This document shows, piece after piece, positions 1 to 5,181 of a DNA stretch of 5,181 nucleotides. The stretch lies in the IMG/VR virus record IMGVR_UViG_648276660_000016, one strand, 5' to 3'. Position numbers and translations under genes: made by a program. The notes under the pieces were generated by a model, which saw only the letters and a program-made list of their open reading frames with translations, was not told the origin of the DNA and ran no database searches. Numbering within the stretch: the first letter of the stretch is position 1; the number at the start of each line of letters is the position of its first letter. The stretch is from a virus. Taxonomy: Duplodnaviria; Heunggongvirae; Uroviricota; Caudoviricetes.

Positions 1-1251
1 GTGCTTACCGATACAAAATTAAAAAACCTCAAGCCGCAGGACAAACTGTACAAGGTCTCCGATCGTGACGGGCTGTATGTAGCTGTGCTTACGTCAGGCA
101 CGGTCTCATTTCGTTATGACTACCGTATCAACGGTCGCCGCGAAACACTGGTAATCGGGCAGTATGGGCGTGACGGTATCAGCCTGGCAGAAGCGCGGGA
201 AGAACTGATTGCTGCAAAGAAGCTGCTTAAAGCAGGCCAGTCACCGGCTGCGGCTAAACGTGACGGTATCAAAAAGATTCGTGGTGCCGAAACGTTTGCG
301 GTACATACCGACAGTTATATGAAACACGTCATCCTGGCTGAAAGTACCCGCGCAATGAAGCAGGCAGTGATCGACCGTGACATACTTCCGGTTCTTGGCA
401 ACAAAATGATGGCTGAAATTACCACATCGATGGTTCGTGATTTGTGTGACCGGATTGTCGAACGCGGTGGCCGGGCAACAGCAGTGCAGGCCAGGGAGAT
501 CATCAGCAGCGTATACCGTCACGCCAATGACCGTGGTCATGGTTTGTTTAATCCTGCGGCTGACATTAAGCCTTCGTCTATCGCCATATTTAAACCACGA
601 GAGCGAACACTGACACCAGAAGAAATTGGCCTGTTCTTCCGCACGTTGGATGCCATTGGTGCTATGGGCACTATGAAAATGGCTTTAAAACTGGTGCTTA
701 TCACTATGGTTCGTAAGGGCGAATTCACCAATGCAACGTGGGATGAAATAGATTTTAAAAAATGGACATGGACAATTCCTTCAGACCGCATGAAGGGAAG
801 CCGGGCGCATGTTATTTACCTGCCTAAACAGGCTCAGGATATATTGGTCGGGTTGCAGATGTGCGCTGGTGGAAGTGAATATCTGGTTCCTGGTCGTTAC
901 AATTTCCGGAAGCCATTATCTAATGCCGCGCTGAACTCTCTGATCGACAGAACGGTGAAAATAATAAATGAAGATGGTGAGCATATTCAGGATTTCACCG
1001 TACACGATATGCGCCGTACAGCCAGTACGTTGTTGCATGAGGCTGGTTATCCTTCAGACTGGATTGAAAAGGCTCTGGCACATGAGCAGAAAGGTGTGCG
1101 CGCCGTATATAACAAAGCGGAATACGCCAGACAGCGCGCCTACATGTTGCAGCAGTGGGCCGATATGATTGATTCCTGGATTAACGGGGAGCATACGGAT
1201 CTGATTCCGTTCTCCCCGTCGAAGTTTGAGAAGTGGATGGCGGGGGAATAA
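1..1251 (+). CDS. int: Phage integrase, tyrosine recombinase of the P4/CP4-57 (IntA-like) type; N-terminus at window edge, possibly 5'-partial
   Basis: 416-codon ORF in frame 1 ending at TAA 1249-1251. N-terminal LTDTKLKNLKP...YRINGRRETLVIGQYG resembles the P4-type integrase arm-binding N-domain. C-terminal catalytic region carries HDMRRT (H-x-x-R box) and a distal YNKAEYARQR tyrosine region. The ORF begins with GTG at base 1, so the true start may lie just upstream of the window. Confidence 0.9.
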   Translation: MLTDTKLKNLKPQDKLYKVSDRDGLYVAVLTSGTVSFRYDYRINGRRETLVIGQYGRDGISLAEAREELIAAKKLLKAGQSPAAAKRDGIKKIRGAETFAVHTDSYMKHVILAESTRAMKQAVIDRDILPVLGNKMMAEITTSMVRDLCDRIVERGGRATAVQAREIISSVYRHANDRGHGLFNPAADIKPSSIAIFKPRERTLTPEEIGLFFRTLDAIGAMGTMKMALKLVLITMVRKGEFTNATWDEIDFKKWTWTIPSDRMKGSRAHVIYLPKQAQDILVGLQMCAGGSEYLVPGRYNFRKPLSNAALNSLIDRTVKIINEDGEHIQDFTVHDMRRTASTLLHEAGYPSDWIEKALAHEQKGVRAVYNKAEYARQRAYMLQQWADMIDSWINGEHTDLIPFSPSKFEKWMAGE

Positions 1252-1254
1252 CGT

Positions 1255-1449
1255 TTAATTATTCTGCTGATTTTCTTCCATCTCGGCTTCTGCTGCCAGT
1301 GATTCAATTTTATCTGTGAATATTGCTGACAGTGTTGCAAATTCAGCATCAGTGACAGCGGGAATTGGAACAAACCTGATCCCGCTGTGTGCAAGCATGT
1401 TTGCAGTTTCAAGGCATTTCCTTAAATCTGATGGTGATGCCCTGTTCAT
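1255..1449 (-). CDS. Small hypothetical protein (64 aa) with acidic C-terminus (…AEAEMEENQQNN)
   Basis: ATG at 1449-1447 overlaps the methyltransferase stop (ATGA overlap, 1446-1449). SD-like GGGAG sits 8 nt upstream on the - strand. Stop is at 1257-1255, 3 bp from the integrase stop. No recognisable domain; could still be a spurious frame. Confidence 0.4.
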   Translation of the reverse strand: MNRASPSDLRKCLETANMLAHSGIRFVPIPAVTDAEFATLSAIFTDKIESLAAEAEMEENQQNN

Positions 1450-2096
1450 GCTGCACGCTCCCGCCCCTGGTTGTCTGTTGGTGACAGCGGAGCATTGCTG
1501 AATGCATTTGTTAATCTGGCAATATCCAACGCGTATCCAGGGTGTAGTTGCACTGCCGGGTCTTCGCACTGATTACCCCAAACATCGAAACCATGAGACG
1601 ACTGGCGGGCGAACAGTTCAATGCGAGAAACATCGCCTAACAATTGCACAAGTTTTTCACGAACGATATCTGGTTTTCTTGAATGCTCAAGCCGCGGTGC
1701 GGTAAATGACTGAACGATCCCTGCATTAATGCGCGTAGGTAGTTTTCCCTTTACTGCAAACAGGCAATCTTCACTATTGGCGCGAGTCATGTGACCCATA
1801 CCCATAACCAGTTTATCTGGTTGTCGACTACCACATTTTATCCACGTGAATCCCTTCATGGTCATCAGACGGAATCCCCAGGCCTCAACAACTTTTAGTG
1901 CTTCGAGTGGTTGTGTTGGCACCCACCACATGGCCAACAGACAGTTTTCATCGGCCAAATCCCACACAGGAAGGCGGCAGATATCCAGCACACTCATAAC
2001 CGGATATTTAAAACCGGCACCGCGATTACCATCTGCGGCTTTGTCCCGGTATACCCAGGGTGGATCTGCATAGATTAGTGTGTATTTCTTAGTCAT
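1446..2096 (-). CDS. MT-A70-family DNA N6-adenine methyltransferase (phage orphan MTase)
   Basis: N-terminal MTKKYTLIYADPPW carries the DPPW catalytic motif (codons at 2066-2055). Later FARQSSHGFDVWGNQ matches the usual C-terminal end of phage MT-A70 enzymes, followed by a ~39-aa extension. ATG 2096-2094 is embedded in the stop region of the upstream ORF (8-nt overlap). An alternative GTG start at 2108 is possible. Confidence 0.85.
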   Translation of the reverse strand: MTKKYTLIYADPPWVYRDKAADGNRGAGFKYPVMSVLDICRLPVWDLADENCLLAMWWVPTQPLEALKVVEAWGFRLMTMKGFTWIKCGSRQPDKLVMGMGHMTRANSEDCLFAVKGKLPTRINAGIVQSFTAPRLEHSRKPDIVREKLVQLLGDVSRIELFARQSSHGFDVWGNQCEDPAVQLHPGYALDIARLTNAFSNAPLSPTDNQGRERAA

Positions 2097-2388
2097 AAAC
2101 CACCCCACAACATCCTATGCCGCTATAGTCGCCACGGCGAAGGCCGTTACCTTTTGTGATACATTGGTCCCTGCGAACCGCGATCCTTGCACGCTCAACA
2201 TCACCAGAAGCAACATCCATACACTGAAGCCAAAGGTGAGCGGCAATGCGGAACTGCCCTTTTTTCTCTCTTTCAATCGCGCGTTTTTCGATCTCTATCG
2301 CCGCAGGAGTAACGGCGACAATCTTTGACGGACTGCGCATTGAAACCTTGTTCATGTGATATTTTTCAAGTCGGCTTAACTTTCTCAC
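2089..2388 (-). CDS. Hypothetical protein (99 aa), charged N-terminal half, Cys-containing C-terminus
   Basis: ORF on the operon strand whose stop TAA (2091-2089) overlaps the methyltransferase start. GTG start at 2388 is preceded by GAGAGGG about 9 nt upstream; an alternative ATG at 2355 lacks an SD. No domain recognised by eye. Confidence 0.5.
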   Translation of the reverse strand: MRKLSRLEKYHMNKVSMRSPSKIVAVTPAAIEIEKRAIEREKKGQFRIAAHLWLQCMDVASGDVERARIAVRRDQCITKGNGLRRGDYSGIGCCGVVYD

Positions 2389-2497
2389 TTAATCCAACCC
2401 TCTCTGAAAATTAATGCCAGCAGATAAAGCCATGCTGAAACAGAGGCCAGGAATAAGTACCATCCTGACCATTTGCTCCAGTGCCTTAGCAGCACAC

Positions 2498-2746
2498 TCA
2501 TGCCGCGTTGCTCACGGGACGATATACACGTTGCTGAACAGGAGGTTTTTTACCCTGGAACTCTGCCGGGCTTGCTGCCTGACGTTCATCAAGCCAACGC
2601 TCAACTTCATCACGGTTCCATGCGCAGCGTTTATCGGTGATATACCAGCGTTTAGGAAATTCCCCTGCGCGCTCCATACGGTCGATAGTGCTCCATGACA
2701 GTGGAACCACCGCCAGGAGTTCCTTCTTACCTAATGCACCTTTCAT
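2498..2746 (-). CDS. AlpA/excisionase-family helix-turn-helix DNA-binding protein (candidate recombination directionality factor or transcriptional regulator)
   Basis: 82-aa ORF with ATG at 2746-2744 and SD GAGAGG 5 nt upstream. LLAVVPLSWSTIDRMERAGEFPKRWYITDKRCAWNRDEVERWLDER fits the AlpA/Xis winged-HTH pattern (S-x-S-T-I-x-R ... FP ... W ... E-W). Followed by a 26-aa low-complexity tail. Confidence 0.75.
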   Translation of the reverse strand: MKGALGKKELLAVVPLSWSTIDRMERAGEFPKRWYITDKRCAWNRDEVERWLDERQAASPAEFQGKKPPVQQRVYRPVSNAA

Positions 2747-2768
2747 AAATACCTCTCTTGGTTGCAGT

Positions 2769-2787
2769 GCGGCGCGCGTGGCGCCGC
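2769..2787. repeat. GC-only inverted repeat GCGGCGC-gcgtg-GCGCCGC (7-bp stem, 5-nt loop) in the annealase/AlpA intergenic spacer
   Basis: Perfect complementarity read directly from the sequence. It lies 8 nt past the annealase stop and about 10 nt before the AlpA-like SD on the - strand transcript. No U-tract follows in either orientation. Confidence 0.5.
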
Positions 2788-2795
2788 GGTGGTGG

Positions 2796-3737
2796 TTACA
2801 TAGATGTTTCGTTTAATTCTTCCCGACGAACGCTGTAAACGTCGGTGGCTTTTGCCAGCAGTTCGTCATCATCTGAAAGTTTTTGTGCAATGTATTTGTA
2901 AGCCTTATCCAGTTCGGAGACAGTGCTGTAATTCATCGCTGCGCTGGTAAAGGCCATCAGCATTTCTTCTGGATCACGGCTGTCCGATTTACGCGTTTGC
3001 TCATCAGGCTTTTTCGCTGGTTTAGCGTTGATCAGACTGTTCATTCCCGCAGCAGTGGTCGTTTGCGGAGTAATGTCTCGCTCAACGCGCGGTGCCGTTT
3101 CCTGTAATTCGTCTGGGGTGTAGACGCCCATGATTACGTCAGGACAGTGCAGGCGAGACCAGCGTTTTGTCGCAAGGTATGCGAGTTGTTGTTTCGGATC
3201 ACTGGCCCAAAGTGTGGAGTTTCTTACCTGTGCTTGAGACAGCATTAACTCAAGCACTCGAGGTTGATCCTCGCCCTTCATGGTTGCCCATACGCGAACA
3301 CCGCAGCCTTCTTCGTCTTTTAGAGTCCAGCCTGGTGCGATATATGGATTGCCGTTTTTGGATGTTTTCTCAACAAACTTACCGATCACGCGTTCCCACG
3401 GCCCGAACCACTCGTAGTTGATGCGATCTTTTGTTGGCGACATCGTTGAGATAACTGCGTTTACTAATTGGGCTTCATAACCTAGCGTGCCGTTCACAAC
3501 ATGGGTTTTCTGAGCCACGGCAAACGGGTTCATTCCCCACTGCGCAGCCTGCATTGCCACGGCCATGCAATCAGCTGGTTTCCCGGCGAGGTGCGCCGGT
3601 ACCGTTACGCGGCTTTGCGCCATTACCTCGGCGAATTTCATCAGTTGGTTCAAGCCGTCTGGGCTGAAAATAGTTGCAGCAGTTCCAGCGATTGCTGTGT
3701 CTACTGGTGCGTTGATGTTTGCGATGTCGTTGCTCAT
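2796..3737 (-). CDS. Red-beta/RecT-family single-strand annealing protein (phage recombinase)
   Basis: Motifs align by eye with lambda Bet: QWGMNPF (Bet QYGLNPW); W-x-S-x-PK...RL...G-V-Y-x-x-D-E (Bet GPWQSHPK...ARLAFGFAGIYDKDE); and ERDITP (identical in Bet). ATG at 3737-3735 overlaps the exonuclease stop (ATGA) and has AGGA about 9 nt upstream. The ORF-track GTG start at 3764 lacks an SD. Confidence 0.85.
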   Translation of the reverse strand: MSNDIANINAPVDTAIAGTAATIFSPDGLNQLMKFAEVMAQSRVTVPAHLAGKPADCMAVAMQAAQWGMNPFAVAQKTHVVNGTLGYEAQLVNAVISTMSPTKDRINYEWFGPWERVIGKFVEKTSKNGNPYIAPGWTLKDEEGCGVRVWATMKGEDQPRVLELMLSQAQVRNSTLWASDPKQQLAYLATKRWSRLHCPDVIMGVYTPDELQETAPRVERDITPQTTTAAGMNSLINAKPAKKPDEQTRKSDSRDPEEMLMAFTSAAMNYSTVSELDKAYKYIAQKLSDDDELLAKATDVYSVRREELNETSM

Positions 3738-4555
3738 ATGTACATATCCTGTTTGCGTGCCCACTCAGGGCGTTTAATGATTTCCACACCGCCCCATTCA
3801 TCATTGATGCGGCATTCGTGATAGGTATTCAGATCCCGGCGGAACAGAGCGTGCCCGGCATCGACATCCTGCGCATCCAGCTCGAACACGCGTACCGGAT
3901 ACCGACCACAATCAATGCTTTCGCTCACGGCAAGAAAGAAAAAACCATGCGGCTGACCAGTAACCCTCATTGCGCCTTCGCGGTACATTGCGTCCTGCAC
4001 GTGGTAGCGGAATTCCTCGATGTGGCGTGCAAAACGGTCCATATCTGCAACCTTTTTCACGTCGACGATCACGTTGTGCTCGTTCAGCCATTTGTCTGGA
4101 CGAATTCGGCACAACTCCCCCGTCTCTTCATCGTTCCAGTACATTGATGCTTCGCAGTAACCAGGTGCTTCCAGCATCCAGCGTGCCGCCGGGTGAGCCA
4201 TTGCGCTATCACGCATCAGCTCCAGTTTCCGCCACTGCTCGGCATCAAGTACCGTAATCCCCATATCCGCCACATCACGAAGAAATTCCTCTTCGTCAGC
4301 TTTACCTTGTTTCGTCCGACGATCGAATTTCGGTGAAACAATGAAGCGTTTGTCGAACTCTCCAGGCTCCAGAAGCAGACAGTGCAATGCGGTTCCCATA
4401 TCCAGTGCAGACTTTTTCTCTTCGTCTTCTGGTGCTGCCTGAACCCATTTAAGAAGCGCCGGATTCTTGGCAACCATGTCCAGTTGCGACTTACTCACGC
4501 CGTCACCGGCGTGGTAGTCTTCGTTGCTGATGTCGAAATAAATTCCCGGTTTCAT
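3734..4555 (-). CDS. Putative PD-(D/E)XK exonuclease, RecE/YqaJ-like short form, partner of the annealase
   Basis: 273-aa ORF immediately upstream of and translationally coupled to the annealase. Contains RIRPD...NVIVDVKKV, consistent with a PD-(D/E)xK nuclease core. SD AGAGGGA lies about 7 nt upstream of ATG 4555-4553. Exact family (RecE C-terminal domain type versus YqaJ type) was not resolved without a profile search. Confidence 0.75.
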   Translation of the reverse strand: MKPGIYFDISNEDYHAGDGVSKSQLDMVAKNPALLKWVQAAPEDEEKKSALDMGTALHCLLLEPGEFDKRFIVSPKFDRRTKQGKADEEEFLRDVADMGITVLDAEQWRKLELMRDSAMAHPAARWMLEAPGYCEASMYWNDEETGELCRIRPDKWLNEHNVIVDVKKVADMDRFARHIEEFRYHVQDAMYREGAMRVTGQPHGFFFLAVSESIDCGRYPVRVFELDAQDVDAGHALFRRDLNTYHECRINDEWGGVEIIKRPEWARKQDMYI

Positions 4556-5103: not shown

Positions 5104-5148
5104 CGAATAGGCAATAAAAAAGCCCCCCCAAAGCGGCGGTTCTTCTTT

Positions 5149-5181
5149 AAAAAAAAATTTTTTTTTTTTTTTTTTTTTTTT
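5149..5181. repeat. Homopolymer tract A9 followed by T24, running to the end of the window
   Basis: Read directly: a at 5149-5157, t at 5158-5181. Preceded by a C7 run at 5123-5129. Nature unknown; see findings. Confidence 0.9.

Follow-up and report, generated by a model that had tools for sequence, protein, structure and literature searches.

Gene content of the locus

The DNA analysed here (hereafter the window, a whole stretch of 5,181 nucleotides (nt)) is the IMG/VR virus record IMGVR_UViG_648276660_000016, classified in Caudoviricetes, and the subject of this work is the 1134-base-pair (bp) interval at positions 1255-2388, in which a predicted adenine methyltransferase of the MT-A70 family lies between two small open reading frames (ORFs) of 99 and 64 amino acids (aa). 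An earlier note, prepared from the sequence, had described the enzyme as an orphan with a possible anti-restriction or epigenetic role, and the two small ORFs, of unknown function, as its candidate partners in a tight three-gene cassette. The interval was identical (100%) to several Escherichia coli chromosomes and was found at 95% identity or above in 539 of 5426 complete E. coli genomes, where RefSeq labels its genes as DUF1382 family protein, MT-A70 family methyltransferase and PerC family transcriptional regulator. Phages phiV10 and TL-2011b match it at 98.5-98.8% nucleotide identity across the whole 1134 bp and have the three genes as well, under the annotations adenine methylase, transcriptional activator and DUF1382. 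On the minus strand of the window the gene order is exonuclease, RecT, AlpA/Xis-like, a 38-aa membrane ORF, PerC-family, MT-A70 and Orf63/DUF1382 (Table 1). At the identical locus of E. coli YDC107 the region forms a prophage left arm whose integrase is directly next to guaA, so that the integrase-proximal position given in the earlier note was borne out, with the integrase adjoining the operon end and guaA beyond it. Within a phiV10/epsilon15-like temperate podophage (Uetakevirus) integrated beside guaA in E. coli, the interval forms the end of the early-left (recombination/excision) operon that lies farthest from the promoter. The prophage is a common one, and this accessory segment of it is ordinary, has been annotated before and is a published phage region.

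Table 1. Features of the window, with the loci of related nin-region proteins in the last row. Coordinates are window positions unless a locus is named.
Feature	Coordinates	Strand	Basis or remarks
MT-A70-family (beta-class, DPPW) N6-adenine methyltransferase, predicted orphan, 216 aa from ATG	1446..2096	-	Pfam PF05063
DPPW catalytic motif IV, residues 11-14	2055..2066	-	Translation; D11 P12 P13 W14 invariant in 19-sequence alignment A1
WGNQ motif, residues 173-176	1569..1580	-	Translation; Pfam MT-A70 match ends at residue 176
40-aa C-terminal tail after WGNQ	1449..1568	-	Translation; family-wide segment CEDPAVQLHPGYAL, ~19-aa subfamily insert DIARLTNAFSNAPLSPTDNQG, terminal RERAA
PerC-family small protein, 99 aa, GTG start, TAA stop	2089..2388	-	Pfam PerC PF06069; phrog_868
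DUF1382 / lambda Orf63-family protein, 64 aa, acidic, isoelectric point 4.5	1255..1449	-	Pfam PF07131; phrog_292; PDB 8DSB
8-nt overlap ATGACTAA, PerC TAA stop / methyltransferase ATG	2089..2096	-	Junction sequence (TATGACTAA)
ATGA overlap, methyltransferase stop / DUF1382 start	1446..1449	-	Junction sequence
GTGA overlap, 38-aa ORF stop / PerC GTG start	2385..2388	-	Junction sequence
ATGA overlap, AlpA-like stop / 38-aa ORF start	2498..2501	-	Junction sequence
Hydrophobic (membrane) ORF, 38 aa	2385..2501	-	phrog_17484 'membrane protein', 38/38 positions, E 5e-27
AlpA/Xis-like helix-turn-helix protein, 82 aa	2498..2746	-	Pfam PF05930 E 3e-5; phrog_66 'excisionase and transcriptional regulator' E 2e-16
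RecT recombinase	2796..3764	-	Pfam RecT E 2e-44
PD-(D/E)XK exonuclease, RecT partner	3734..4555	-	Pfam DUF3799 E 1e-22; not a restriction enzyme
Tyrosine integrase (P4/CP4-57 type)	1..1251	+	Pfam Arm-DNA-bind_3, Phage_int_M, Phage_integrase; convergent with the operon; guaA-side prophage end
nin-region loci of winged helix-turn-helix (wHTH)-PerC proteins	L021, L023, L050, L052 at ~3050-4160; L179-L188		

The methyltransferase and its slot in sister phages

Pfam PF05063 matched residues 5-176 of the methyltransferase over profile positions 1-172 of 172 (E 3e-22, 79.7 bits against a cutoff of 23.9), and the protein also matched phrog_359 'DNA methyltransferase' (E 2e-120) and the PADLOC MTase_II model PDLC03262 (E 2e-77). 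Its DPPW motif lies near the N-terminus (permuted beta order) and aligns with the active-site motif of MTA1 and METTL3; the closest solved relatives by sequence were Tetrahymena MTA1 (E 4e-13) and human METTL3 (E 5e-6), and the fold was matched to MTA1/METTL3-type structures with a Foldseek probability of 1.00. The eukaryotic MT-A70 complexes (METTL3-METTL14 and Tetrahymena MTA1-MTA9-p1-p2) have the same DPPW active site but are obligate hetero-oligomers with separate nucleic-acid-binding subunits, whereas the phage enzyme is a bare catalytic domain of ~190 aa with a tail. No restriction endonuclease gene was found in the window, all ORFs of which fall in other families, and none is annotated within 9 kilobases (kb) at the identical YDC107 locus; the MTase_II model is thus matched with the endonuclease gene of a type II restriction-modification system absent. 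In agreement with the earlier description, the enzyme is, as judged from sequence, an orphan (solitary) MT-A70 methyltransferase with the DPPW motif, in a prophage and next to the integrase, and it is an uncharacterised new member of a known phage MT-A70 clade.

To compare what occupies this position in related phages, divergent PerC homologues were traced to their contigs by exact-protein look-up, which replaced an uninformative scan of viral contigs with the PerC alignment that had returned only 99%-identical copies. All complete sister loci shared an exo-RecT-AlpA-(38 aa)-PerC ... int backbone, and each carried a methyltransferase gene in the gap between PerC and int (the slot, at 1255-2096 in the window). 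The slot held an MT-A70 enzyme in L166, L167, L168 and L172-L174, a Dam enzyme (PF05869) in L165, L170/171, L175 and L177, and a 637-664-aa fusion of C5 DNA_methylase and Dam in L176 and L178, with methyltransferases of all three kinds starting at the same GCGGCATGA junction after an ORF of the DUF1317 family. The Dam and C5+Dam enzymes are also orphan, with no endonuclease, and stand in the same position before int, but they belong to a different family that has no sequence homology to the MT-A70 enzyme beyond the shared Rossmann-fold class. Such non-orthologous displacement among families of DNA methyltransferases argues that the job of the slot is DNA modification, and a DNA-modifying, anti-restriction role is favoured here because sister phages place non-homologous DNA methyltransferases in the same slot. 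We lean, with reservations set out below, towards an orphan phage DNA N6-adenine methyltransferase at the end of a phiV10/epsilon15-like early-left operon that would serve escape from restriction and whose neighbours would not be obligate partners. The enzyme would then modify replicating phage (and host) DNA, by which the progeny may escape host restriction. The anti-restriction role proposed in the earlier note is plausible and is strengthened by the slot displacement; its main rival is a ribosomal RNA (rRNA) substrate.

The C-terminal tail of the methyltransferase

The earlier note had pointed to an extension of ~39 aa past a WGNQ motif that it took to lie usually near the C-terminus. Although 40 residues do follow WGNQ, the motif is not normally C-terminal in this clade, and the true extension is ~19 aa: tails in the survey had a median of 21 aa past WGNQ, 16 of 105 were 35 aa or longer, and 50 of 105 ended in AA. 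Homologues have a conserved tail pattern, C-x3-[VI]-x-L-x-PG-x-A, frequently with an ...AA ending, and the window tail keeps both ends of the pattern (CEDPAVQLHPGYAL ... RERAA) with an insert of ~19 aa between them that is common to Salmonella, Enterobacter and Enterobacter-phage Tyrion homologues. By sequence, the 40-aa tail is the family-wide tail of ~21 aa plus the ~19-aa insert of a longer subfamily found in E. coli, Salmonella, Enterobacter and their phages; the idea of an unusual extension was accordingly dropped, membership of a longer subfamily being an outcome that the earlier note had itself named as telling against it.

The AlphaFold (AF2) model, built from a shallow alignment and with an overall predicted local distance difference test score (pLDDT) of 65, placed a beta-hairpin at residues 182-191 and a helix at 192-200 (pLDDT 71-84), and gave residues 201-216 low confidence and no structure. 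The last methyltransferase codons (GGG CGG GAG CGT GCA GCA TGA) also supply the next gene with its ATG and a GGGAG-like ribosome-binding site, which accounts for much of the conservation at the end of the tail. Tail length showed no correlation with a PerC or DUF1382 neighbour: PerC-adjacent tails were anywhere between 13 and 40 aa long, and loci in which the DUF1382 gene is replaced still have the 40-aa tail.

The two flanking small genes

Coding of the small ORFs was assessed from pairwise ratios of nonsynonymous to synonymous differences per site (pN/pS) against diverged epsilon15-like relatives, which were chosen via the methyltransferase and not via the small ORFs and for which pS was 0.4-1.0, near saturation. 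These ratios replaced earlier synonymous and nonsynonymous counts over 80 viral loci, which were biased in the case of PerC, the loci having been chosen by PerC identity. For the 99-aa ORF the pN/pS was 0.21-0.59, and 0.30-0.71 when its first 16 codons are taken by themselves. For the 64-aa ORF it was 0.27-0.50, and the conservation of this ORF as a coding frame in homologues, a check proposed in the earlier note, was thereby established. Both small ORFs are real genes, not chance ORFs. The label of unknown function did not hold for either, since hidden Markov model (HMM) and structure searches gave PerC (PF06069) and DUF1382 (PF07131), as they are also named in RefSeq.

In the 99-aa protein, residues 35-80 aligned with positions 5-50 of 90 of the Pfam PF06069 profile (30.1 bits against a cutoff of 22.6), phrog_868 'transcriptional activator' covered 99/99 positions, and the ANR family NF033650 gave a weak match over the same residues as the PerC core (23.6 bits, below its cutoff of 32). 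The protein shares this helical core match with the PerC/Pch activators and the ANR regulators and, as they are, is small, basic, helical and prophage-encoded; unlike the PerC profile, of which only 46/90 positions match, it has a conserved N-terminus of its own and, on the C-terminal side, a GVVYD beta-hairpin. Some PerC-family members (PerC, Pch) activate host virulence genes, and ANR regulators act through binding other proteins. The predicted fold is similar to tetratricopeptide repeats (TPR-like), with no recognisable DNA-binding motif. RefSeq starts the gene at ATG 2340 (83 aa) and so omits the 16 codons at 2341-2388. This call is probably too short, and GTG at 2388 is the likely start, because the 16 upstream codons are conserved, under purifying selection and covered by phrog_868; the 97-99-aa homologues at 62-84% identity also retain the N-terminal KLxRLEKYH segment. 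The PerC-like protein is probably a regulator with a TPR-like fold, encoded by a backbone gene of the phage. It was also tried as a homologue of PNB-2, the small protein encoded beside a related methyltransferase (see below), and rejected: there was no BLASTP match, and hhalign gave 1% (A4 versus A3) and 0.3% (A4 versus A5).

The 64-aa protein matched Pfam PF07131 over 60/60 positions (E 6e-30, 103.6 bits against 27) and aligned with lambda Orf63 (PDB 8DSB) over 61 residues (E 1e-12). Its gene closes the operon, with 3 nt between it and the stop of the convergent integrase gene, and its location after exo-RecT-AlpA/Xis-like and before int corresponds to the exo-xis-type segment of the early-left operon. 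Orf63 is DUF1382, and belongs to the lambda exo-xis region, whose genes bias the lysis-lysogeny outcome; it is a dimeric helical protein with a structure determined by nuclear magnetic resonance and a 'pro-lytic' phenotype (PMC10869804). The lambda gene likewise stands between the recombination genes and int/xis in the early-left operon, but not beside a methyltransferase. In phages HEMP4, PAS61 and BP9 a Ser/Thr phosphatase gene replaces DUF1382, with the breakpoint at the methyltransferase stop, and in Klebsiella and Citrobacter relatives the DUF1382 gene lies upstream of the methyltransferase. DUF1382 was absent from all 80 species-level loci of enzyme relatives that were fetched. The Orf63-family protein is the product of a mobile 'exo-xis region' gene of lambdoid phages.

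Gene junctions and operon context

The 8-nt overlap upstream of the methyltransferase and the ATGA overlap downstream of it were both present as the earlier note had described them. They are two of four consecutive overlaps that link the last five genes, AlpA-like through DUF1382, so that a dedicated three-gene cassette gave way to a chain of at least five overlapping genes. Among the 74 species-level loci that could be scored for junctions, an overlapping junction (-1, -4 or -8) was found upstream of the methyltransferase in 40, downstream in 42 and at both ends in 27, and the neighbours, unrelated to one another, made up 52 sequence clusters upstream and 62 downstream. Such packing, with overlaps at both ends, is usual for the operons of this enzyme family, whatever the neighbours.

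In most epsilon15-like relatives the PerC stop overlaps, via the same TATGACTAA (ATG ACT AAC = MTNPH), the start of a 52-aa DUF1317 ORF, which itself ends in GCGGCATGA, the methyltransferase start (DUF1317-like ORFs at 2847-2954 in L003 and at ~2790-2950 in L166, L170, L173, L176 and L177). The ORF is frame-disrupted in epsilon15 (gp30), and the phiV10 lineage lacks it, the methyltransferase (ATG ACT AAG AAA TAC = MTKKY) standing directly on the PerC junction. The overlap of PerC and methyltransferase in the window is therefore a lineage-specific juxtaposition, brought about by the absence of the DUF1317 gene from the phiV10 lineage. The overlap junctions hold both the start of the gene that follows and its ribosome-binding site, and may serve as points at which modules are swapped. 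Recurring GC(G/A)GCATGA junctions were also observed, and look like module-exchange points.

No sigma-70-like promoter or intrinsic terminator was predicted on the coding (minus) strand at 1200-2900, and no Rfam family or structured RNA was found in the same range. Because of the start/stop overlaps and the absence of a predicted internal promoter or terminator, the last five genes would most likely form one transcript after infection or induction. The repeat finder returned no inverted repeat in 1200-2900, its seed being too long for the arms of a GC-rich imperfect palindrome, GCGGCGCGCGTGGCGCCGCGG, at 2762-2795 between RecT and the AlpA-like gene; epsilon15 has an annotated 'stem-loop; transcriptional pausing' at the matching position.

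The order exo-RecT is the same in Salmonella phage epsilon15 and in every relative examined, and the backbone of epsilon15 is alike (exo-RecT-gp33 (AlpA-like)-gp32 (38 aa)-gp31 (PerC-like, 99 aa)-...-adenine methylase-int). Epsilon15 differs from the window in having a remnant small ORF (gp30) between PerC and methyltransferase, a 192-aa methyltransferase with a short tail, and a serotype-conversion gene in place of the DUF1382 gene. The 38-aa membrane ORF is kept between the AlpA-like and PerC genes across epsilon15-like relatives and had a pN/pS of 0.26-0.61; the RefSeq YDC107 record has no coding sequence at that position (2385-2501). When read from its GTG start, the RecT ORF overlaps the 3' end of the exonuclease by 31 nt (3734-3764), and RefSeq picks a later start with a 4-nt overlap. 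The last ~55 bases of the window (5125-5181) are unlike YDC107 and end in A9 then T24, which looks like a contig-end, assembly or sequencing artefact. Literature searches on phiV10 or epsilon15 plus methylase returned no functional study, and those on PerC with prophage and methyltransferase returned nothing relevant.

Substrate and partners of the enzyme

The nearest characterised relative is M.EcoPA8orf6770P of PA8, a Shiga toxin (Stx) phage of the Stx2a type (the PA8 enzyme), for which a 1:1 complex with PNB-2 and an effect on spontaneous induction have been reported (Gong, Chakraborty and Koudelka, Nucleic Acids Research 2023, PMC10810198). The window enzyme is 83% identical to it, with 90% positives, over residues 1-187, and has the same N-terminus, MTKKYTLIYADPPW; in both phages an upstream gene overlaps the start codon and a DUF1382 gene follows immediately downstream. 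The phages themselves are of different types, PA8 being a Sepvirinae Stx phage and the window a podophage. The PA8 upstream gene is that of PNB-2 (143 aa, winged helix), which is unrelated to the PerC-like protein, and the tails past WGNQ differ (32 aa in the PA8 enzyme versus 40 aa in the window enzyme; CGTPSIEMVPGIVKFLEKTNERKNDVDKGITS and CEDPAVQLHPGYALDIARLTNAFSNAPLSPTDNQGRERAA), the window enzyme lacking the PA8-type tail, whose last 27 aa are connected by the authors with PNB-2. M.EcoGV of the O104:H4 outbreak strain C227-11 is highly similar to the PA8 enzyme (PMC10810198) and is reported to methylate GATC in vivo when over-expressed (as cited in PMC10810198, PMC6602927), so that the activities reported for this group conflict: 16S rRNA for PA8 with PNB-2, and GATC in DNA for over-expressed M.EcoGV.

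Several points weigh against a DNA-modifying role. The displacement in the slot is positional, not biochemical, and one slot may carry functionally different cargo. The PA8 enzyme was almost without DNA methyltransferase activity in vitro and, with PNB-2, reportedly preferred 16S rRNA in 30S subunits (PMC10810198). In a Dam+ host there would be little need for further methylation of GATC. The solved MT-A70 enzymes (METTL3-METTL14, MTA1c) act together with partner subunits, the 216-aa protein is without an obvious target-recognition domain, and a partner for it is conceivable; moreover, a PerC-domain gene stands directly upstream of MT-A70 in two unrelated phage backbones.

That the window enzyme is, like the PA8 enzyme, a methyltransferase of 16S rRNA (30S), possibly with a small phage subunit, which tunes translation and prophage induction, seems unlikely on balance. 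The biochemical case comes from PA8, where consumption of S-adenosylmethionine (SAM) by the enzyme with PNB-2 was >13-fold better with RNA than with DNA and a DPPW-to-APPA mutant lost the phenotype (PMC10810198); a follow-up preprint gives four candidate 16S sites and proposes a Shiga-toxin-related role. The rRNA claim in the 2023 paper rests on the SAM-consumption assay, without a mapped base (PMC10810198). The gene order adds to the likeness, since the DUF1382 gene lies directly downstream of the methyltransferase in PA8 as in the window. Mapping of the published primers placed the insert of plasmid p-M.EcoPA8F2 at 2056-3282 of the PA8 genome (L004, KP682374), spanning gp6 (PNB-2), gp5 (methyltransferase) and gp4 (DUF1382), so that the DUF1382 gene was present in the 'holoenzyme' construct; gp4, a third small protein, could have been co-expressed in those preparations. 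Against transfer to the window, PNB-2 is absent here (a PNB-2 HMM had no match in the window) and neither neighbour is homologous to it (no BLASTP match; hhalign probability 1%), the C-terminal tails diverge after residue 187, in the region that the authors tie to PNB-2 binding, and the authors call the PA8-type enzyme specific to Stx2 phages with a role tied to Shiga toxin, whereas the window prophage is of the phiV10 podophage type. The slot in this backbone is otherwise filled by bona fide DNA methyltransferase families.

The earlier suggestion that the small neighbours are partners of the enzyme has a published precedent in PNB-2 of the Stx phage (PMC10810198), but PNB-2 is homologous to neither of them. 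In its most specific form, in which adjacency reflects a two-subunit methyltransferase and the PerC-domain (TPR-like) protein is a facultative subunit that gives the MT-A70 enzyme its specificity or activates it, with a function like that of PNB-2 or the eukaryotic non-catalytic partners, we regard it as improbable. The nearest gene upstream was most often a PerC-domain ORF (14 of 79 loci; the second family had 6), and such ORFs also stand beside methyltransferases 40-46% identical to that of the window in a lambdoid nin-region backbone, where they have an N-terminal winged helix and overlap the methyltransferase start. The predicted TPR-like fold is a scaffold for protein-protein interaction, the protein has a weak resemblance to ANR regulators, and every solved structure among the closest MT-A70 relatives is of a complex that includes partner subunits. 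On the other side, PerC stays whichever methyltransferase family occupies the slot, and among 10 viral contigs with the nin backbone the wHTH-PerC protein was found with MT-A70 in five and without a methyltransferase in five. A DUF1317 gene separates PerC and methyltransferase in most epsilon15-like relatives, no PerC gene lies within 3.5 kb at 62 of the 85 methyltransferase loci (one is present at the other 23), tail length does not follow PerC adjacency, and PerC-MT-A70 fusions are rare and arise from a 1-nt deletion or an internal deletion only. The evidence against PerC as a partner is stronger than the evidence for it, and neither the PerC-like nor the Orf63-family protein appears to be an obligate partner of the enzyme.

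The nin-region wHTH+PerC protein (~147-155 aa, phrog_1324) follows a replication gene and is itself followed by MT-A70 or directly by a LexA-like gene and RusA. Three rare in-frame fusion proteins were observed in public assemblies: in P0005, which may be an artefact, PerC is joined to the methyltransferase, with one T missing in a T-run relative to the window junction; in P0003, an N-terminal PerC fragment is joined to the methyltransferase; and in P0237, an N-terminal PerC fragment is joined to DUF1382, with the methyltransferase deleted. All three are probably mutations or assembly errors, and they show that loss of the methyltransferase is possible.

We attach little probability to the gene being expressed in the lysogen, instead of in lytic growth, and regulating host or prophage genes epigenetically (lysogenic conversion). 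Some 10% of complete E. coli genomes have retained the cassette, and the neighbouring gene belongs to the PerC family, some members of which activate host virulence genes, both of which would fit such a role. So would two properties described in the PA8 report, transcription of gp6-gp5 from a promoter induced on approach to stationary phase (a personal communication cited therein) and the effect on spontaneous induction already noted (PMC10810198). Set against these, a search of the coding strand gave no promoter-like site ahead of either the PerC or the methyltransferase gene, the genes lie inside an overlapping early-operon chain that would normally be silent in a repressed prophage, and the methyltransferase gene had 53 nonsynonymous versus 63 synonymous variant sites among near-identical prophages.

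A broader scheme, in which phage MT-A70 enzymes are modular two- or three-subunit enzymes with interchangeable partners (PNB-2 in Stx phages, PerC-domain proteins in epsilon15-like and some lambdoid phages, and possibly Orf63/DUF1382), strikes us as a long shot. An Orf63/DUF1382 gene does flank an MT-A70 enzyme, on either side, in three phage lineages. Were the scheme true, a methyltransferase would be the means by which the PerC family and lambda Orf63 exert their effects, and whether DNA or rRNA is methylated would depend on the partner.

Significance

The overlaps and the tail have mundane explanations. The question of a DNA or an rRNA substrate, with or without a small partner, is real and is not specific to the window. 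About one in ten complete E. coli genomes carries the cassette, and a close homologue in Stx phages has been tied to toxin output; it matters, then, whether such enzymes modify phage DNA, with consequences for restriction evasion and host range, or ribosomes, with consequences for the control of induction. For the phiV10/epsilon15-like lineage the slot comparison argues for modification of DNA, and its set of sister phages offers a natural test set.

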